Below are positions 10,044 through 26,936 of a DNA stretch of 64,000 bases, in pieces. Each line of letters starts with the position of its first letter. Position 1 is the stretch's first letter. A program made the position numbers and the translations under genes. The notes beneath the pieces were generated by a model. The model was not told the DNA's origin and ran no database searches. It saw only the letters and a program-made list of their open reading frames with translations. Source of the DNA: Candidatus Poribacteria bacterium (GTDB taxonomy: Bacteria > Poribacteria > WGA-4E > PCPOR2b); assembly GCA_965116925.1 (NCBI GenBank), contig OZ220744.1:1408001-1472000 (forward strand), given 5' to 3'.

Positions 10044-10883
10044 ATGAAACAGGCGAAAGCATTCGCACCCGGCAACCTCTCTTGCGTATTCAAGATCATC
10101 CCTCACCCAGAAGCAACCAAGATGCACTCGCTCGGCATGGGGTTTACCATTACAGAAGGCGTTGTTGTAACGGTTACCCAGCATAGCAGCCAGACCACCG
10201 TCCAATTTAATGACAGCAAGATCCATTTCCCCACCGTTATATCAGTTGCCCAAAAATTGACACATCAACCAATGCAGGTAGAAATCCATTCTCCCCTACC
10301 GCTTGGATGCGGGTTTGGTTTGAGTGGAGCAGCTTCGCTCGCTACAGCGTACGCGCTTAATGCCCTACTAGGATTAGGCAAATCCGAAGAAGAACTAGCG
10401 ATGACCGCTCATGTGGCTGAAGTGGAGAATCGAACGGGTTTGGGAGATGTCTGCGCCCAATATCACGGTGGTTGTCTCGTTAAGTTAAAGATAGGCTATC
10501 CCCTCGCTGCGGAACGCCTACCGATTCCTGAACAACCAATCTACTACCGATATTTCAGCTCCATCCAGACGAAAACCATCCTCGAAAACACCGAGCGGAG
10601 AGAACGTATCAACAGAGCAGCAGATGAAACATTGCAAGCTTTAGAAAAGCTGACGAAATCGGATACGGTTGACTTTAACGCCTGTATTCAATTGTCCAAA
10701 CAGTTCTCTCTAAACAGCGGGCTGTTAGAAGATAAGCGTGTACAGGGAACCATCCGCGAAATCGAGGAGGGGGGCGGGGTTGCGTCTATGATTATGTTGG
10801 GAAATGCGGTATTTAGCACCCATCCTTTTGAAGGAGCGACCGAAACAACGCTGTCTGAAGGCGAAAAGGGGAGGCTATTATGA
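10044..10883 (+). CDS. pok: Pantoate kinase (archaeal-type GHMP kinase)
   Basis: AFAPGNLSCVF, PLGCGFGLSGA, AHVAEVENRTGLGDV, ASMIMLGNAVF; overlaps the PPS gene (ATGA). Confidence 0.88.
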   Translation: MKQAKAFAPGNLSCVFKIIPHPEATKMHSLGMGFTITEGVVVTVTQHSSQTTVQFNDSKIHFPTVISVAQKLTHQPMQVEIHSPLPLGCGFGLSGAASLATAYALNALLGLGKSEEELAMTAHVAEVENRTGLGDVCAQYHGGCLVKLKIGYPLAAERLPIPEQPIYYRYFSSIQTKTILENTERRERINRAADETLQALEKLTKSDTVDFNACIQLSKQFSLNSGLLEDKRVQGTIREIEEGGGVASMIMLGNAVFSTHPFEGATETTLSEGEKGRLL

Positions 10884-11617
10884 GCGATGTTCCTGAGAGC
10901 CATCCTCGGTATGCGTCGCTGAAACTGCGAGATGTCATTGTCGCCGGTGTGGAGAGTGGGGTGACCTCTATCCACGGCTTGATGGCGCATGGTCGTGGCG
11001 AAGCCTTCGACTACCTCATCGGCGAACAAACACAACCCTTTGCTATGGACGCAATTCGCGCCGGAGCAGCCACCCTTCTGCTTGCCGAACATCCCGTAAT
11101 CTCGGTTAATGGAAATGTTGCGGCATTAACGCCCGGTGAATTGGTGACGTTCGCAAACGTCCTCAAAGCCCCATTAGAGGTGAATATCTTCCACGCCTCG
11201 AAAGCACGGGAGGATGCGATACGAGAGCATCTCGCAAAACACGGGGCGGTTCGCGTTTTAATGCCTACAACGGAAGTGCAACTTTCGTTTATTGACTCAA
11301 ATCGGAAGTTCGTCCATCCAGAGGGAATTTTTCGCGCCGATGTGGTGTTCGTTCCTCTTGAGGATGGCGACCGCTGCGAAGCGTTGCGGAAGATGGGCAA
11401 AACAGTAGTGACAGTTGACCTTAACCCCATGTCTCGGACCGCTAAACAGGCAGGCGTAACCATTGTGGATAATGTGGTGCGAGCTTTGCCGCTGCTGATT
11501 CAGAAGGTTAAAAAGCTGCAAAAAGCATCTCCCTCTGAGTTAAGGAAAATAATCTCCGAATATAGCAACGACAAGGCTCTGCAAGCGGCAGTCCAATGGA
11601 TTCGCCGAGAGCGATAA
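10880..11617 (+). CDS. pps: Phosphopantothenate synthetase (4-phosphopantoate--beta-alanine ligase, archaeal type)
   Basis: VPESHPRYASL, AHGRGEAFDYLIGE, PVISVNGN, VPLEDGDRCEAL, DLNPMSRTA, VDNVVRA. Confidence 0.93.
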   Translation: MSDVPESHPRYASLKLRDVIVAGVESGVTSIHGLMAHGRGEAFDYLIGEQTQPFAMDAIRAGAATLLLAEHPVISVNGNVAALTPGELVTFANVLKAPLEVNIFHASKAREDAIREHLAKHGAVRVLMPTTEVQLSFIDSNRKFVHPEGIFRADVVFVPLEDGDRCEALRKMGKTVVTVDLNPMSRTAKQAGVTIVDNVVRALPLLIQKVKKLQKASPSELRKIISEYSNDKALQAAVQWIRRER

Positions 11618-15367: not shown

Positions 15368-15396
15368 TTGACAGCCTTGCGATACGGTGCTATAAT
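15368..15396 (+). promoter_or_regulatory. Consensus sigma70 promoter of the four-gene membrane operon
   Basis: TTGACA-N17-TATAAT with extended -10 TG. Confidence 0.8.
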
Positions 15397-15464
15397 CGCA
15401 GCTATTAATGATGTTCTCATCTATGGAAACAAACGCATCGCACCAAAAGACTGGAGGTTACAAT

Positions 15465-16361
15465 ATGAAAGGGCAAAGAATCTTTTGTCCATCCCCGGTG
15501 GTTCAAGGGTTAGTTATACTGGTTTTTGTGCTAGGGTGTGGCCTTAATGCCTTTGCACAAGAGGCAACTACAACCGAAGATACCCGATTGTTTGACACCG
15601 CCAAAATATGGATTTTTCTTGCTGTGATCCTGTACTCAGCCACAGTAGTCTATTGTATCTACCATGCTCGGAGTGGAAAGGAACTGTTTATCCGCCGTAT
15701 TCCCGGACTTGAAGCGGTGGATGAGGCGATTGGTCGAGCAACGGAGATGGGGCGTTCAATTATGTACATCCTCGGCCTGGGAGGGGTCAGCAATGTCGCA
15801 ACCATCGCGAGTATGAACATCCTCAGCCAAGTGGCACAGAAGACTGCGGATTATGAAACGCCGCTGCGAGTCCCGTGCAATGATCCCATTGTAATGAATG
15901 TAGTTCGGGAGATGGTGCGAACTGCTTATCTCAATGAAGGACGACCTGATGCCTACAATGAGGAGAACATCTTCTTCCTCACAGAAAGTCAATTCGCCTA
16001 TGCTGCGGGTGTTGATGGAATGATGGTTCGGGAAGAGCCGGCGGCGGTTTTTCTGCAAGGTTCGTTCTTCGCCGAATCGTTGATTTTGGCGGAAACCGGC
16101 AATTCCATCGGCGCAATCCAGATCGCGGGAACCGACAAGGAGCACCAACTACCGTTCTTCATCGCCGCGTGTGACTATACACTGATTGGTGAAGAACTAT
16201 ACGCAGCTAGCGCGTACTTATCCCGTGAACCGATGCTGCTCGGTAGTCTCAAGGGGCAAGATTACGGCAAGGTAATGATTTTTGGTGCTATCGTGATTGG
16301 CGTCATTCTCGAACTTTTCGGGATTACTTGGATGACGACCTTCTTCCAGCGAGTTAAGTAG
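15465..16361 (+). CDS. DUF6754-like membrane-anchored protein
   Basis: RBS GGAGG; signal peptide, TM, IRRIPGLEAVDEAIGRATEMGR...LIGEELYAASAYLS, C-terminal TM. Family name from recognition only. Confidence 0.75.
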   Translation: MKGQRIFCPSPVVQGLVILVFVLGCGLNAFAQEATTTEDTRLFDTAKIWIFLAVILYSATVVYCIYHARSGKELFIRRIPGLEAVDEAIGRATEMGRSIMYILGLGGVSNVATIASMNILSQVAQKTADYETPLRVPCNDPIVMNVVREMVRTAYLNEGRPDAYNEENIFFLTESQFAYAAGVDGMMVREEPAAVFLQGSFFAESLILAETGNSIGAIQIAGTDKEHQLPFFIAACDYTLIGEELYAASAYLSREPMLLGSLKGQDYGKVMIFGAIVIGVILELFGITWMTTFFQRVK

Positions 16362-16391
16362 CGTTTTACGTTTCACGCTTCAGGAGGTGTT

Positions 16392-17042
16392 ATGAGACGA
16401 CAAGTTCCGTTAATTCTTTGTTTCGCCTTTGGTATTGTGATGGCACTTACCGAATTTAGCCCGCACCCATTTTCTCAGGGGCTCAACAAGGAGGTCATCG
16501 ATTGGGCATTGGTTATCGGTCCATTCGCACTTGTACTAGCTGTCGCAACCTTGGTGCAGACCCACTGGGTCCGCATCCGTCGGCGTAGTGAATATTGGCA
16601 ATATAGCTTTCTGGTCTTCATTGGAATGATCGTTATGGTTGCGATTGGCATTCCGTTTGGTCAAAGGCATCCGGCTTTTGTGTGGATGTTTGAAAACGTG
16701 CAAGTGCCAATGGATGCAACGATGTTTTCACTTCTCGCATTTTTTATCGCCTCTGCTGCCTATCGTGCTTTTCGGGCCCGCACCCTTGAGGCGACCCTGC
16801 TACTTGCTGCGGCACTAGTTGTCATGATTGGGAATGCCCCCGTTGGGGATCTCATCTGGAACACGATAATGCCATTTGGAGATAACTTGCCTTCTGCAGC
16901 ACGGCAGTGGATTTTAGATAATCCGAATCTCTCCGCACGACGGGGGATTATTCTTGGCATCAGTCTCGGTGTGATTTCTCAGTCAATTCGTATCATCTTG
17001 GGTATTGAACGTTCATATCTCGGAGGCGTAGAAGGAGATTAA
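16392..17042 (+). CDS. Uncharacterised polytopic membrane protein (about 6 TM)
   Basis: RBS GGAGGT; hydrophobic helices; SLLAFFIASAAYRAFRART. Confidence 0.8.
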   Translation: MRRQVPLILCFAFGIVMALTEFSPHPFSQGLNKEVIDWALVIGPFALVLAVATLVQTHWVRIRRRSEYWQYSFLVFIGMIVMVAIGIPFGQRHPAFVWMFENVQVPMDATMFSLLAFFIASAAYRAFRARTLEATLLLAAALVVMIGNAPVGDLIWNTIMPFGDNLPSAARQWILDNPNLSARRGIILGISLGVISQSIRIILGIERSYLGGVEGD

Positions 17043-17045
17043 AAA

Positions 17046-17861
17046 ATGATCGAAAAACTAATGAACATAGATCGGCGAATTGTCTTCATTTTGGTTGCAT
17101 TGGCGGTGATCATTCCTTCCTTGCTGTCAGTCAGTTTTCCTATCACTGTTTCACAACCGACGCGTAGTACCTACGACTATATTGAAGCACTGCCCGCCGG
17201 TTCAACCCTCATGATTGGATTTAACTACGGTCCCTCGTCGTTAGCAGAACTCCACCCGATGGCAAAAGCGGTGATACACCACTGTTTTCGGAATAAGATT
17301 CGGATTATTGGCATGACGCTTCTGGCGGAAGGGGCAACGTTGGGAGATGGAATGTTGTCGGAGACCGCCGCCGAAGCGGGAGCGGTTTATGGTGAAGATT
17401 ACGTCTATCTGGGCTTTCGGCCGGGGGCAACACAGGTGCTCCTAGGAATGGGTACGGCAATTGATTCCGTTTTTGAAGCCGATTATGCCGAAACCCCACT
17501 CGCGGAAATTCCCATGATGACGGATATTAAAAATTATGATCAGATTGATCTGGTTCTCGATTTGGCATCGGGCAGCTCCACGGAATGGTGGATTGTTTAT
17601 ACAAACACAAGGTATAACCAGCAGATAGCCGCGGGTGTGACTGGTGTGATTGTGTCGCAAATGTACCCGTACTTACAGACAAAGCAGCTAATCGGTTTGA
17701 TGCCCGGCCTCTTAGGTGCTGCAGAGTATGAAAAGCTAATTGGGAAACCCGCAAAAGGAACCGAAGGCATGAGCATCCAATCCTTCGCACATCTACTGGT
17801 TGTCGGGCTTGTGATTCTAGGTAATATCGCCTTCTTTATCCAACGGCGTCAAGCTGAATAA
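17046..17861 (+). CDS. Uncharacterised membrane-anchored alpha/beta domain protein
   Basis: N- and C-terminal TM helices flanking a soluble domain; YVYLGF, PYLQTKQL, GLLGAAEYE. Confidence 0.8.
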   Translation: MIEKLMNIDRRIVFILVALAVIIPSLLSVSFPITVSQPTRSTYDYIEALPAGSTLMIGFNYGPSSLAELHPMAKAVIHHCFRNKIRIIGMTLLAEGATLGDGMLSETAAEAGAVYGEDYVYLGFRPGATQVLLGMGTAIDSVFEADYAETPLAEIPMMTDIKNYDQIDLVLDLASGSSTEWWIVYTNTRYNQQIAAGVTGVIVSQMYPYLQTKQLIGLMPGLLGAAEYEKLIGKPAKGTEGMSIQSFAHLLVVGLVILGNIAFFIQRRQAE

Positions 17862-17878
17862 AACAGGAGGTTTCATAC

Positions 17879-18529
17879 ATGACGGAATTGATTGGTACCT
17901 GGGTGGCTGCACTGCTTACACTCTGCATCTTTAGTTTTCTGTATCGAGATAATCCGTTTTACCGATTTGCGGAACACCTGTTTGTGGGGATCTCGGTGGG
18001 CTACGGTATTGTACTTACAATCCACCAAGGTTTTATACCGTTCGCGTGGAAGCCCATTGCACAAGCTGTCACGCAGCAACAGTGGGTTGGCTTGTTGAGG
18101 CTTATTCCAATCGGTATTGGCGCGTTATTCTTTACACGTCTTGCCCCGACACACGGGTGGTTAATTCGGTATCCAATTGCTATTCTCATCGGGGTAGGAT
18201 CCGGTTTAGCAATTCCAAATGTAATGCGAGCTGACATCTTTCAGCAGGTGCATGGGACGTTGGCTCCATTTGCACAGATTCATGCAGGCGAGTTAGGTCC
18301 GTTTCAAATCTTTGGTGTCATTCTTATGCTTATCGGTGTGATGTCAACGTTGACCTACTTCTTCTTTTCGGTCGAGCATCGAGGGGTGGTTGGTGGCGTT
18401 TCAAAGATTGGCATCGTCTTTCTAATGATTGGATTCGGTTCAGCATTCGGTAACACGGTGATGGGTCGTGTATCTCTGCTCATTCAACGGGTGGACTTCC
18501 TACTAGCCGATTGGCTACATCTGATTTAG
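17879..18529 (+). CDS. Uncharacterised polytopic membrane protein (about 6 TM)
   Basis: RBS AGGAGG; YRDNPFYRFAEHLFVG, FGSAFGNTVMGRVSLLIQR. Confidence 0.8.
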   Translation: MTELIGTWVAALLTLCIFSFLYRDNPFYRFAEHLFVGISVGYGIVLTIHQGFIPFAWKPIAQAVTQQQWVGLLRLIPIGIGALFFTRLAPTHGWLIRYPIAILIGVGSGLAIPNVMRADIFQQVHGTLAPFAQIHAGELGPFQIFGVILMLIGVMSTLTYFFFSVEHRGVVGGVSKIGIVFLMIGFGSAFGNTVMGRVSLLIQRVDFLLADWLHLI

Positions 18530-22425: not shown

Positions 22426-23666
22426 ATGAAGATTAATTTATTAATTCGGTAATAATCCGACATAGTGTAGTAGTTGCTGTGACCCGTCTTTAAACTGCTG
22501 CATGAAGGCAAGCACTTTGTCTTGAAGTGCCTGCCAGTCATTACTGAGCCGATGGAGATGTATAACCGACTGACGCACCCAGCGCCACAACTTCTCAATT
22601 GGGTTTGTCCACGCGGCATAGGTCGGCAGTTGCAATATCTCAATAGGGAGTTTGGCGAGTTTGCCGATTTTGTTTGACGGTTTGCCTGTCCAGTTAGGCG
22701 GTGTGGGTTTGGCAAACGTCGTTGTCTGTTGCAGGAGTGCTGCGGTAAGGTTCGGATGAAAGTGTATCGCCCGATTATCCTGAACCAGATAGATACGTTC
22801 GGCTTTTGGGTAGTGTTGGCAAATCTGTGTGTAAAAGGTATGCAGTGCGACCACTGTGCAGGTTTCGACCTGCTGGTAAATGACCTCCCCTGTGTGTGGA
22901 TTGAGCGCACCGATGCCATAACAGGTTTCTTCGGAGCAGTGACTGCGCCGTGCCAAGGGATGCTTCGTGCCGGTCTCTGCCCAGTCTTTTGCGAGGGTCG
23001 GTTGTCGTTTGAAGCTAAACTCATCTTGGTAAAGCACAACGCAAGTTTCCAGCGTGTCACGTGCAGTTTCTAAAGCGTGCTGGACGCAAGAAAGTTTTTC
23101 AGTATAATCGGCATCCGGACTCCGCACATAGTCTCTGGCACGCTTATAGCTGATCCCCACCCGTGAGAGGATTTGGTGAATGCCCGGCACAGAGATGTCC
23201 CGCAACCAGGGTACGACCTGACCGAGTGTGTGCAGCGTCCAGCGGGTTTGATACGGAGGGATTTGCCCCGGATCTTGACCGATAGCTTGTAAGAGTTCTG
23301 ATTTGGCAACTTCAGCCGACTTGGGGAAAAAAGCGGGTTTTCGACCTCGACCGGGATTATGAAACAGCCCACGCAGACCTTGTGCGCGATAGCGACGCAA
23401 CCACGCATAGACGGTGTCAGGGTCACGTTTTTTTAGCAAGCCCTTACGTGCAACTTCATGCGGAGAAACGCCTTGATGTATTTTCAACAGTGCCGTTGCT
23501 CGTTCTCGGAGATAAGCCGGTTCGCCTTTATCTCGGAGTTCAACCAGGGCTTGGATTTCGGATTCACTCAACTCAAGTGTATGATGTTTTGCCATCAGAG
23601 AATACCTCCTTTGGCACTACGATAACACAAATAACAATATTACCGAATTATTTTTTTAATCTTCAT
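22426..23666 (-). mobile_element. IS630-family insertion sequence
   Basis: 28-bp imperfect TIRs ATGAAGATTAATTTATTAATTCGGTAAT / ATTACCGAATTATTTTTTTAATCTTCAT around a transposase. Confidence 0.9.
22441..23595 (-). CDS. IS630-family transposase (intact)
   Basis: HTH, PGRGRKP, DDE triad YQDE / VQDNRAIH / NPIEKLW; stop codon lies within the TIR. Confidence 0.93.
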   Translation of the reverse strand: MAKHHTLELSESEIQALVELRDKGEPAYLRERATALLKIHQGVSPHEVARKGLLKKRDPDTVYAWLRRYRAQGLRGLFHNPGRGRKPAFFPKSAEVAKSELLQAIGQDPGQIPPYQTRWTLHTLGQVVPWLRDISVPGIHQILSRVGISYKRARDYVRSPDADYTEKLSCVQHALETARDTLETCVVLYQDEFSFKRQPTLAKDWAETGTKHPLARRSHCSEETCYGIGALNPHTGEVIYQQVETCTVVALHTFYTQICQHYPKAERIYLVQDNRAIHFHPNLTAALLQQTTTFAKPTPPNWTGKPSNKIGKLAKLPIEILQLPTYAAWTNPIEKLWRWVRQSVIHLHRLSNDWQALQDKVLAFMQQFKDGSQQLLHYVGLLPN

Positions 23667-24008: not shown

Positions 24009-26828
24009 TTAAAATGCCTGACCGAGCTGGAGGTAAAAGATGGGTTTAAATTCTCTCATTAACGGCACTCCCATGTCAATACGGGCAGGTCCGAGCGGGG
24101 TCTCTAAGCGCACACCCGAGCCTATTGCTATACGCGGAAGGTCTCTCTGGATATCCGAAAATTTATCCCATACATTGCCTGTATCCAAAAACAGGGCACC
24201 ACCGATGAACCTATAGATTGGAAAACGGAGTTCCGTGTTCAAAATGAATAACACATCGCCACGATGATTGCCGAATTGATCTTGCGGTCCAAGGCTCCGC
24301 TCCGGGTATCCCCTAACCGTATTTGATCCGCCGGCATAGAAACGCTCGAAGGAGATGATCTCCCGGTCCCGGTTTCCTCTTAGTCCTTTTTCATACCCAA
24401 GGCGAATCGCGCTGGCAAGGACAGCATCTCTCCAAAACTGCCAATAGTAGCGATGATCAGTTGTAAATTTGAAGAAACTGGTTTCCCCTCTGAGAAATCC
24501 ACCCGCATACTCAATCGCAACTTCATTGAACCAACCGTTTTTCGGATTCAGGAAATGATCTCGGCTGTCTCGATGAAACTCAACACCGAGACTGCTCACT
24601 GTGGTCTGAATTTTAGGTGGGTCGTCATGGTCACGTAGGTCTTGAGATTTGTACTGTAATGCAAGATTGCTGTATTGCCCCAACCGTTTGGCAAGGTTCG
24701 CCGTTCCACCACGCGCCCGTATATCTTCATATTCCTCAAGATTATCGTTGAATAGGCGAAAAGTTCCTATTGTCGGTCCGATGAGTTTATCGAGGGGCGT
24801 AAGGTTGAACCACGGTTCAATCAACGTTATTTCATACAAATTGCCTCTTGTGCCTCGACTCACCTTGCCACTGATTTTCATGTTACGTTTGAACAGGTTG
24901 TTGTGTGCAAGTCCCAATGTTCCGCGAATACCCTCAGAGGAGATATATCCCCCGCTGACGCTGATTGCCCCTGGTTTTTTTACCTTAACACCTACATTAA
25001 CATTAATAATTTCCGTATTTTCAACATATTGATCAGATGGCTCAATTTCAACTTCTTGGAAAAGACCTGCGGTCAATAAACGTCGTCGAGATTCCGTTAA
25101 TAATCGTTCTTCGTTAAATGCCGCTCCTTCAACTAAGCCGAGGTTCTCAAATGTTCGCTGCAAAACATGCAGTTTAATTTGCCCATCCCCATCGAAATAG
25201 AATTTGCCAAATTTGGCTTGAATCCCTTCAGAAATCCTATAGGTAAGTGTGCGCGTCTCCGGCTGATAGTCGTGACTGATATGTGCATAAATATATCCTT
25301 TCTCATTGTAAAGGGATTCGAGCTGCCGCTCGCCATAATTCGCAATCTCTAGGCTGTAAGGCGTTCCGGGTTTTGCGTCAAGTTTTGCATATAATTCAGC
25401 TATCTCAAAGATTGTGACCCCTTCTATTGAAACACGATCTATGATTTTCTGTTCTCCTTCGTAGATTTTTATATCTAAAATGAGCCGGTCATCCTTATCG
25501 ATCTTAGGGGCATTACTCGTAACCCGAACATCTGGATAACCTTTGCTTTTATATTCGAGTTCCAATGCACGTTTGTCCATTTCAAGTGTTGTCGGGTTAT
25601 AGATACCTTTGGACAACAACCATCCAAATCCCGGGACTACAAACCTACTGCGAGGTTGGGTTTCCATCAGATCTAGCAAGAAGGCATCTGTAAATGCGGT
25701 GTTCCCCTCGAAATTGATATGCCGAATTCGTGGGGCTTGCCCCAGCTGAATCTCGAAATAGATAGCCACTTCTTGACCCGATTTTTCCTCCCTCCTATGA
25801 CTTACTTTCGGGTCGTAATACCCTTTCTCTCGATAGATTTGAAGAATTTGTTGTTCTGTACTTTTAAGAATTGTCTCCGAAAAGTTCTCCCGTTTGAATA
25901 GAGTTAGCTTTTGCTGGAGTTCCGATTCATCGATACCATCACCAACAAATTTGATTTCGATCTTTTTTCCTTCAATAATTTCGTAGTTCAGGATAACTGT
26001 ACTAGCTGCGTCATCGTAGTTACGGCGAGGTATGACTTTTACAGTAAGATACTCATTTTTCCGGTATAATTCTCGAATACGGTTGGCATCGGCATCAACA
26101 GATTGTTTTTGATAGGTTTTACCTCTTTCACCTTTAATGGTTTCTTCTAACTTTTCAACATCAATTGATTTGACGCCTTCAAATCGGATGTCCTGAATAA
26201 GTGCTCGGTTCCCCTCATCAATATTATATAACAAATCAATCTGACGCGAGGAGTTGGGATTAGGAATAGGGGTTAGACGAATTTCTGTCTGAAAATATCC
26301 GTAATCTTTGTATAAATCGAGAACTTTACGCCGGTCATCTTCTGCAATCTCAAAGGAATATTCCTTTTTTGGACGAGAGACTACCACGTCAAGCAGCAGA
26401 CTTTCACTTAGACTGTTCCCCTTAAACTCGATTTTTCCGATTCGTATCTTGCCGGTAAGATCGAACCTCAATCGCACCCCGTTTGGACCAAGCATTTCGA
26501 TTGCTGTAATCTGAGAAAAGAGACCAATTGTATATATCCCTTCGATGCTTTTTCGGATCTGATAAGGCGAAGCAATACTTCCAATCTGTACCCGTGTCTT
26601 ACGCTTCACCTCCGCATACATTGAACCTGAACTGAGGGGTTCACCATCCAATCTGTAATGGATTTCAATAACGGGAGGACTCTCAGACTGGCTCCAAGCC
26701 AAATTGAGGGAAACAGCAGAGGAGATAAGCATCACGGGAAGCAATAACGGAAAAAGGTAGGACATGAAAGAAGGATTAAAGGGGAGTTGCGTCGTTTTAT
26801 GAATTTGCAGATTTGCCCATTTACCCAT
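24009..26828 (-). CDS. Omp85-family outer membrane protein (BamA/TamA-like) with multiple POTRA domains
   Basis: Repeated Y...GY POTRA motifs, FYAGGSNTVRGY, TPLGPARID, C-terminal LGQAF. Start codon uncertain (26765-26897). Confidence 0.9.
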   Translation of the reverse strand: MGKWANLQIHKTTQLPFNPSFMSYLFPLLLPVMLISSAVSLNLAWSQSESPPVIEIHYRLDGEPLSSGSMYAEVKRKTRVQIGSIASPYQIRKSIEGIYTIGLFSQITAIEMLGPNGVRLRFDLTGKIRIGKIEFKGNSLSESLLLDVVVSRPKKEYSFEIAEDDRRKVLDLYKDYGYFQTEIRLTPIPNPNSSRQIDLLYNIDEGNRALIQDIRFEGVKSIDVEKLEETIKGERGKTYQKQSVDADANRIRELYRKNEYLTVKVIPRRNYDDAASTVILNYEIIEGKKIEIKFVGDGIDESELQQKLTLFKRENFSETILKSTEQQILQIYREKGYYDPKVSHRREEKSGQEVAIYFEIQLGQAPRIRHINFEGNTAFTDAFLLDLMETQPRSRFVVPGFGWLLSKGIYNPTTLEMDKRALELEYKSKGYPDVRVTSNAPKIDKDDRLILDIKIYEGEQKIIDRVSIEGVTIFEIAELYAKLDAKPGTPYSLEIANYGERQLESLYNEKGYIYAHISHDYQPETRTLTYRISEGIQAKFGKFYFDGDGQIKLHVLQRTFENLGLVEGAAFNEERLLTESRRRLLTAGLFQEVEIEPSDQYVENTEIINVNVGVKVKKPGAISVSGGYISSEGIRGTLGLAHNNLFKRNMKISGKVSRGTRGNLYEITLIEPWFNLTPLDKLIGPTIGTFRLFNDNLEEYEDIRARGGTANLAKRLGQYSNLALQYKSQDLRDHDDPPKIQTTVSSLGVEFHRDSRDHFLNPKNGWFNEVAIEYAGGFLRGETSFFKFTTDHRYYWQFWRDAVLASAIRLGYEKGLRGNRDREIISFERFYAGGSNTVRGYPERSLGPQDQFGNHRGDVLFILNTELRFPIYRFIGGALFLDTGNVWDKFSDIQRDLPRIAIGSGVRLETPLGPARIDMGVPLMREFKPIFYLQLGQAF

Positions 26829-26936
26829 GCGTATATTCTCACCTCCTTTCTTTCCTTGCAACTCAGTTGGCAGGGTAGGAGTTACACCATTGCACATCTT
26901 AACTCAAGGGTCCCAGGGGACAGATTCCTTTATTTT

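Follow-up and report, generated by a model that had tools for sequence, protein, structure and literature searches.

The stretch of DNA analysed here (the window, 64,000 nucleotides) belongs to the genome of a sponge-symbiont bacterium of the Poribacteria, a single contig of 6.47 Mb that is 99% complete and is designated G000 below, the window being G000:C1:1408001-1472000. On its forward strand lies a module of four closely packed genes, g1 to g4, the first of which encodes a member of the DUF6754 family, and we discuss here the possibility that this module is the membrane part of an ATP-driven machine whose remaining genes lie elsewhere in the same genome.

The module is preceded by a sigma-70-type promoter (15368..15396, + strand), TTGACA-N17-TATAAT with an extended TG, which matches the consensus at 12 of 12 positions. 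Behind it, and on the same strand, g1 (15465..16361) encodes a DUF6754 subunit of 298 amino acids (aa; PF20539, E 1.9e-123) and g2 (16392..17042) a polytopic membrane subunit of 216 aa with about six transmembrane helices (TMH) and a predicted cytoplasmic N-terminus. These are followed by g3 (17046..17861), which encodes a protein of 271 aa with a putative N-in anchor, an outer six-stranded Rossmann-like domain and a C-terminal TMH, and by g4 (17879..18529), encoding a second polytopic subunit of 216 aa and about six TMH, here with the N-terminus predicted to lie outside. The gaps between the genes are 30, 3 and 17 bp, and GGAGG or AGGAG precedes each start as a ribosome-binding site (RBS); a check of the sequence found promoter, reading frames, gaps and RBSs all to be as an earlier note on this DNA had described them. 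That note also remarked on the identical length of g2 and g4, which is true of this copy but is a coincidence, the lengths of the homologues being variable. An alternative, longer start of g1 at 15408 lacks an RBS, and a length of 298 aa is shared by the nearest homologues, which favours the shorter frame; among homologues with names the nearest are from Candidatus Poribacteria. The module is present as a single copy in G000, and the dehydrogenase genes that flank it there do not recur as neighbours in other loci.

Perfect TTGACA/TATAAT sites with a 17-bp spacer number 66 in the G000 genome, where about one would be expected by chance. Both hexamers are kept (11-12 of 12 positions) with a changed spacer in seven of ten relative loci (L001-L010), and among 14 further Poribacteria-type loci the promoter is seen in L012 only. 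As judged from these sites, the promoter is probably functional but not special, being ordinary for this genome. Eight RNA-labelled runs contain the stretch; the four examined consist of contigs that cover the neighbouring genes alike and are thus uninformative on transcription, strand and start.

Distribution, topology and predicted folds of the module

A scan of GTDB genomes returned at least 624 relatives, of which the best 80 loci were analysed. These include Poribacteria, WOR-3, Zixibacteria, Eisenbacteria, Stahlbacteria, Edwardsbacteria, Ignavibacteria, Cloacimonadota, Planctomycetota, Armatimonadota, Bacillota and Nitrospirales, and the system occurs in at least a dozen lineages of bacteria, most of them uncultured. 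Calycomorphotria hydatis and Stratiformator vulcanicus, both among the names of homologues, would be cultured carriers. The order g1-g2-g3-g4 is found at 86 of the 107 g1 copies in these best 80 of 624 loci, the remainder being copies within 2.6 kb of a locus end (17) or copies that stand alone despite having room (4), and this neighbourhood survey bears out the earlier suggestion that the four genes belong together. Two or three copies of the module occur in 17 of the 69 loci with a g4. Of 41 relatives, 40 have DUF6754, as against none of 14 control genomes, and g1 matches 2,227 clusters at 50% identity.

Residues 40-294 of g1 match the Pfam DUF6754 model over positions 3-257 of 257 with 411 bits, against a gathering cut-off of 27. 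For g2-g4 neither Pfam nor NCBIfam gave a match better than E 0.1, the ESM Atlas returned only unnamed clusters for g3 and no usable named cluster for g4, and searches of PDB sequences gave nothing at E≤0.001 for g1, the g1 profile, the g2-g4 profiles or the ATPase and partner proteins introduced below. By hydropathy, g1 has a signal-like stretch and two clear TMH, g3 has two TMH, and g2 and g4 have about six each. The layout of g1 is accordingly read as a signal-like stretch, a TMH, a six-stranded Rossmann-like domain predicted to be cytoplasmic, and a second TMH. Its homologues range from 289 to 1276 aa (median 519, 150 representatives), the additional length being N-terminal, and scanning 60 long ones identified ectodomains in the form of BamB-like propellers (10), fibronectin type III (FN3) domains (3) and LysM domains (2), with 45 unannotated and no known enzyme or sensor domain among them. 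The G000 protein lacks such an ectodomain. In locus L063 an FG-GAP domain is carried on g2.

The topology of the module was deduced from several indirect lines, namely lysine/arginine (K/R) charge bias averaged over 56 modules, gene fusions and domain insertions. Because the extensions of g1 carry typical extracellular domains, its N-terminus should lie outside and the DUF6754 domain inside, and the K/R-rich loop after its first TMH (mean count 6.8) is likewise cytoplasmic by charge bias, as are both ends of g3. The same bias places the N-terminus (1-5) and loops 54-70 and 123-133 of g2, and loops 22-31, 87-97 and 163-176 of g4, in the cytoplasm. The third loop of g2, variable and outside by this measure, harbours a whole g3-type soluble domain in L040 (L040:1255-2595), with a normal g3 behind it. 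Full g3+g4 fusions were found in eight proteins, in seven of which the linker gains a hydrophobic helix, as the chain would require to pass from a cytoplasmic end of g3 to an external start of g4; the fusion without a linker helix (P0278) and a partial one (P0292) are possible read-through errors. Large insertions in g4 fall at positions ~64 and ~135. Invariant polar residues occur in or at the edge of TMH in g3 (H249, N260), g4 (E32, R197) and g2 (E206), and the g1 domain (residues ~70-255) has a patch of invariant acidic residues (E204, E210, D237, E243 and E244, numbered on the full-length protein). Ectodomains, charge bias, fusions and insertions support the cytoplasmic location of the g1 domain and the external location of the g3 domain that had been proposed in the earlier note, and, together with the models below, they support a reading in which g1+g2 and g3+g4 are oppositely oriented halves, each with its Rossmann-like domain on a different side of the membrane.

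Most of the proteins P0279-P0307 form a g4 subfamily with insertions of 300-400 residues at ~133, an outside loop. Tandem g1 pairs ahead of a single g2 (L108:724-2436, L109:6506-8268) suggest exchange of g1 on one core. Two further fusions were dropped, that of DUF6754 to an S49 peptidase in L091, which spans a run of N, and that of a small protein to DUF6754 in P0312, which looks frameshifted.

The g1 model (residues 40-298) has a predicted local distance difference test score (pLDDT) of 96.2 and consists of a TMH, a helix, six alternating strands and helices, and a TMH. The natural g3+g4 fusion P0274, modelled from a mostly unpaired alignment (pLDDT 88.4, predicted template modelling score 0.87), shows in its g3 part the element order of the g1 model, apart from an insertion behind the fourth helix, and in its g4 part three pairs, each of a short and a long helix. 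The GEELY motif of g1 and the GAAEYE motif of g3 occupy the equivalent place after the last strand. Foldseek gave no match at E≤0.001 for either model. In VIA searches, 16 of the top 50 entries are common to the g1 and g3 models over similar chain ranges; the best Z scores are 10.5 and 9.1, respectively, with no entry standing out and only common Rossmann-like folds returned, and the P0274 searches were filled by the g3 domain, with g4 barely covered. MTH777 (1kjn) matches g1 with Z 9.7 and a root-mean-square deviation (rmsd) of 3.3 over 132 aligned residues and g3 with Z 9.1 and rmsd 3.7 over 141, and both models also resemble sirtuins, ACDS epsilon (1ytl), transhydrogenase domain III (4j16) and RCK domains, all at an identity of 4-15%, which reflects a shared fold and gives no function. 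The models support assignment of g1 and g3 to the same fold class, and make their common ancestry plausible. Of the pseudo-symmetry that had been suggested for the four subunits, the opposite topologies and the same predicted fold layout thus stand, but common ancestry is undetectable by sequence.

Linked ATPase and partner genes

No Walker A or CxxC motif was found in any of g1-g4, and the description of the system as one with no ATPase therefore holds for the operon. It is misleading for the system as a whole, as a GlmL-like actin-fold ATPase (PF13941, 602 aa) is linked to the module elsewhere. In G000 this ATPase is encoded at C1:6021919-6023727, directly behind an open reading frame of 100 aa, and its unannotated partner of 373 aa at C1:2807420-2808541; a profile match identified an eighth gene, for a small membrane protein, at C1:2214925-2215455. 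The ATPase, partner, 100-aa and small membrane genes are each single-copy and scattered in this genome. In other genomes they gather around the module. The ATPase gene lies within 7 kb of the module in 16 of the 80 loci, and in 14 of these 16 it is on the same strand and upstream of g1 with a gene for a ~375-aa partner in between, the other two being divergent. A second order, small-g1-g2-g3-g4-ATPase-partner, was seen among 20 hand-picked regions, where among the matches listed it is present in L099 and L101-L103, L100 ending after the ATPase; the gene for the small membrane protein usually precedes this array. The profile of the small membrane protein, built from six sequences, found seven further copies in the loci besides the one in G000.

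Co-occurrence across genomes, filtered for at least 90% completeness, follows the same pattern. Within a sample of 131 around an Armatimonadota genome, DUF6754 is found in 113, the partner in 113, both in 111 and neither in 16, and the two genomes with DUF6754 only do have the ATPase. Of 151 Planctomycetota genomes 40 have DUF6754 and 38 the ATPase, all 38 lying within the 40, while 111 have neither; in the relatives the ATPase is present in 41 of 41. Copy numbers differ between the two components, in that five genomes chosen for having several modules contain a single ATPase each but 6, 6, 5, 6 and 6 DUF6754 matches, of which two are partial. Four Planctomycetota with two modules (G198, G222, G241, G258) have two close ATPases each, and the motor is therefore not always single.

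The ATPase matches PF13941 over the whole model (417 bits, E 1.6e-124) and gave no match to PDB sequences at E≤1. It is 61-69% identical across phyla, and DCGSTTTK, DIGGATTD and a third motif are invariant in 14 sequences; we take the first two to be the phosphate motifs and the third to be the adenosine motif of the fold. The partner family gives weak matches to barrel-sandwich domains (Biotin_lipoyl in 11 of 16 members, RnfC_N in 10 and NQRA_N in 7) and has a C-terminal part resembling SH3 and KOW domains in one of 16 members each, and its middle domain may be swiveling-like.

The sequence identities differ between the parts of the system. Among 55 modules from outside the Poribacteria, identity is 62-64% in the inner domain of g1, 39-41% in the outer domain of g3 and 46-48% in g2 and g4, with the ATPase at 66%, and the inner domain is the more conserved of the two in 1485 of 1485 module pairs, paralogues within one locus included. 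Such a pattern would be expected of numerous modules that share a single conserved motor in the cytoplasm and encounter different ligands at their outer faces.

Several observations concern copies or surroundings of these genes. In two diverged pairs (L093:7278-9749, L094:7310-9814) a fusion of ATPase and partner gives single proteins of 824-835 aa, with no adjacent DUF6754 module, and in L096 a diverged pair stands beside acyl-CoA-dehydrogenase-like genes. Near the ATPase of G000 (C1:6029106-6033195) are vWA-like, PP2C-like and kinase-TPR genes, which we take to be a TerY-P triad, and the small membrane gene stands between what we assume to be secG-like and tRNA-guanine transglycosylase-like genes (C1:2214475-2216693). 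Relatives in family f4 have second, diverged modules (L110:6843-8795, L111:6646-8283, L112:3871-5403), of which those in L110 and L111 bear LysM ectodomains; L110 is directly behind presumed dipeptide-ABC-like genes, and L111 and L112 are behind presumed minCDE-like genes and an ion-channel gene.

A proposed ATP-driven importer and its rivals

From gene order and co-occurrence, the module, ATPase, partner, 100-aa protein and small membrane protein very probably constitute one genetic system. That this system is a physical machine driven by ATP also seems likely, if less firmly so, and for solute import in particular the balance of the sequence evidence is about even. Our preferred explanation, to which we give a probability of roughly 0.5, is that the four genes specify the membrane part of an ATP-driven machine of seven to eight genes, most likely a solute importer. 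The chains of g1-g4 would assemble as one complex, in which the variable outer domain of g3, helped by the optional ectodomains, would capture cargo and g2 and g4 would form its path, and the conserved inner domain of g1 would dock a single shared ATPase-partner pair, whose ATP cycle might prise the module open or free the cargo at g1. An importer with ATPase-driven release is favoured because of the conservation pattern and because reactivases remodel their clients with ATP. In this respect a part of PMC7674605 describes ATP-powered remodelling of a client by subunit exchange for related actin/Hsp70-fold reactivases, and MutL/GlmL is termed a chaperone for the reactivation of glutamate mutase in a part of PMC4682846. 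A four-chain complex prediction (with g3 as the partner) scored 0.79, and 0.74 in a control with chain 1 replaced, which counts neither way on binding.

Several points weigh against an importer of this kind. The loci analysed, as the best 80 of 624, lean towards close relatives, and the co-occurrence counts come from samples that contain kin and are not independent, so that Fisher values calculated from them overstate the association. Two genomes (G225, G228) have the module and no ATPase match, and three (G047, G124, G024) have the ATPase and no DUF6754 or g4 match, though these assemblies may be incomplete. The diverged ATPase-partner paralogues of L093-L098 have no adjacent module and may have other clients, and a conserved cytoplasmic domain would likewise be expected in signalling or secretion machines. 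As to the symmetry of the halves, BLASTP and hhalign (local and global) gave no homology signal between g1 and g3 or between g2 and g4 (hhalign probabilities 0.9% and 1.3%), so that the relationship the earlier note had proposed for these pairs was not recovered by profile comparison. No clue to a cargo came from 52 scanned flanking genes, which are heterogeneous with no recurring pathway, and no Rfam family was found in nine system loci or at the G000 locus. Rough riboswitch motif patterns run over all loci gave one match, which was rejected as lying inside a coding region, and a peptide-derived cargo has no clear support, peptide-ABC or amino-acid genes flanking only L025, L033, L042 and L110.

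The strongest of the rival explanations, although an unlikely one in our estimate, is an envelope machine, likewise driven by ATP, for the export, insertion or remodelling of proteins or polymers, with ectodomains that anchor the machine or pass clients on. The ectodomains counted above, together with the FG-GAP domain of L063, are of structural types, the small membrane gene follows the presumed secG-like gene in G000, and two lineages carry the system as a near-core trait (40 of 41 and 113 of 131 genomes). The description of GlmL as a chaperone (in part of PMC4682846) would also suit such a machine. The finding that one ATPase goes with five or six diverged modules, which differ most in the outer domain, fits many cargoes better than one housekeeping task, however; the ectodomain is dispensable, being absent from the G000 copy and from many frames of 250-300 aa, and the system was not found in 111 of 151 Planctomycetota genomes or in the 14 control genomes.

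Somewhat less probable again is a signalling relay, in which g3 would sense a ligand, g2 and g4 transmit the signal, and g1 switch an ATPase-partner pair that acts on a cytoplasmic target. In its favour, a single conserved pair in the cytoplasm is the common end point of many variable modules, RCK/KTN regulatory domains (Z 8-9) are among the numerous structures that the two soluble domains resemble, and the KOW/SH3-like part at the C-terminus of the partner (in one of 16 members each) may be read in the same way. Against this, no known sensor or output domain was seen in the 60 long g1 homologues and no recurring regulator among the 52 neighbours, and two opposed six-TMH subunits would exceed what a relay needs.

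The earlier note had suggested, as a possibility, an ATPase-free secondary transporter or transmembrane relay, neither of which is supported here: a GlmL-like ATPase and partner co-occur with the module almost one-to-one and are operonic with it elsewhere. A self-sufficient secondary transporter, to which the ATPase would be an assembly or repair factor or quite unrelated, we regard as improbable: inverted halves are typical of secondary carriers, the invariant polar residues in or near the TMH would suit one, and the G000 operon stands alone behind its own promoter, but two independent operon arrangements add to the near one-to-one co-occurrence, and the cytoplasmic g1 domain is as conserved as the ATPase itself. 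Least probable is a cobalamin-related role, with the ATPase as a GlmL-type reactivase of a B12 enzyme or unloading corrinoid from the module, which is suggested by the match to the whole PF13941 model and by the role of MutL/GlmL as a glutamate mutase chaperone (part of PMC4682846) and is countered by scores far below the NCBIfam cut-offs for GlmL and Or-4 and below that of TIGR01319, by the lack of a glutamate mutase E (PF06368) match in the 99%-complete G000, and by the failure to recognise a mutase-like reading frame by eye beside the ATPase or a cobalamin riboswitch in nine loci.

Were the importer explanation true, it would account for a large set of proteins now mislabelled as 'glutamate mutase L' or 'fibronectin type III protein', in a system that is near-core in the Poribacteria relatives and the Armatimonadota sample. 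The Poribacteria copy, with one module without an ectodomain and one ATPase, would provide a minimal test case. Elsewhere in the window are two overlapping genes at 10044-11617, which we take to encode an archaeal-type pantoate kinase (GHMP kinase)-like and a phosphopantothenate synthetase-like protein, a transposase-like reading frame at 22441-23595 that is presumably IS630-like, and a gene for a BamA-like outer-membrane protein at 24009-26897.

Comparison with known systems

We found no description of a DUF6754/PF13941 system in a literature search, most subscription papers and supplements being outside its reach. To our knowledge, no solute transporter is driven by an actin-fold ATPase. Tentative, at slightly less than even odds in our judgement, is a description of the system as a new class of primary active transporter, in which a pseudo-symmetric four-subunit core, bearing a Rossmann-like domain on either face, would be serviced by a single, separately encoded actin/Hsp70-fold ATPase and barrel-sandwich partner shared between several substrate-specific modules, in place of an ABC, P-type or rotary ATPase.

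DUF6754 (PF20539), of which g1 is a full-length member, is a family without a function that covers one of the four subunits, and close homologues of g1 are named 'fibronectin type III domain-containing protein', whereas the G000 protein has no FN3 domain. As the earlier note had supposed, g1-g4 matched no known complex of the Mrp, Rnf, TRAP or energy-coupling factor (ECF) type, a statement that refers to sequence-family searches. The TRAP families DctP, DctQ and DctM were not found for g1-g4 or their alignments. With regard to the Mrp, Rnf and Nqr membrane families, one of 143 g3/g4 rows touches PhaG/MnhG (E 0.0035) and none matches Rnf or Nqr; g1-g4 have no CxxC motif, and the RnfC_N and NQRA_N matches of the partner are weak.

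The ATPase shares the PF13941 match and actin-fold motifs with GlmL/MutL and Or-4, and differs from them in scoring 222 bits against a cut-off of 475 for GlmL (NF040745), 211 against 600 for Or-4 (NF040744) and 173 against 204 for TIGR01319, in its length of ~600 aa as compared with ~450-460 positions in the models, and in being linked to membrane genes and a barrel-sandwich partner and to no B12 mutase. PF09043, the lysine/ornithine aminomutase family, had no match in G000, and the control genomes gave none either. The glycerol and diol dehydratase reactivases are alike in that an Hsp70-like ATPase with a partner remodels its client by subunit exchange, which offers a model for a possible action of the present ATPase on g1, and unlike in being soluble with a B12 enzyme as the client (both points from part of PMC7674605).

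The closest likeness in genetic pattern, and in that pattern only, is to the group II ECF transporters, where the system's single motor for several diverged and scattered modules (five or six DUF6754 matches and one ATPase in all five of the genomes chosen) has its counterpart. In group II ECF transporters one EcfAA'T motor serves many S-components. Neither EcfT nor S-component families were found among 69 g2 sequences and 143 g3/g4 rows (Pfam, E≤0.01). The two differ in that the putative motor is here an actin-fold PF13941 protein in place of an ABC ATPase, and in that each module would consist of four subunits, with soluble domains on both faces of the membrane.

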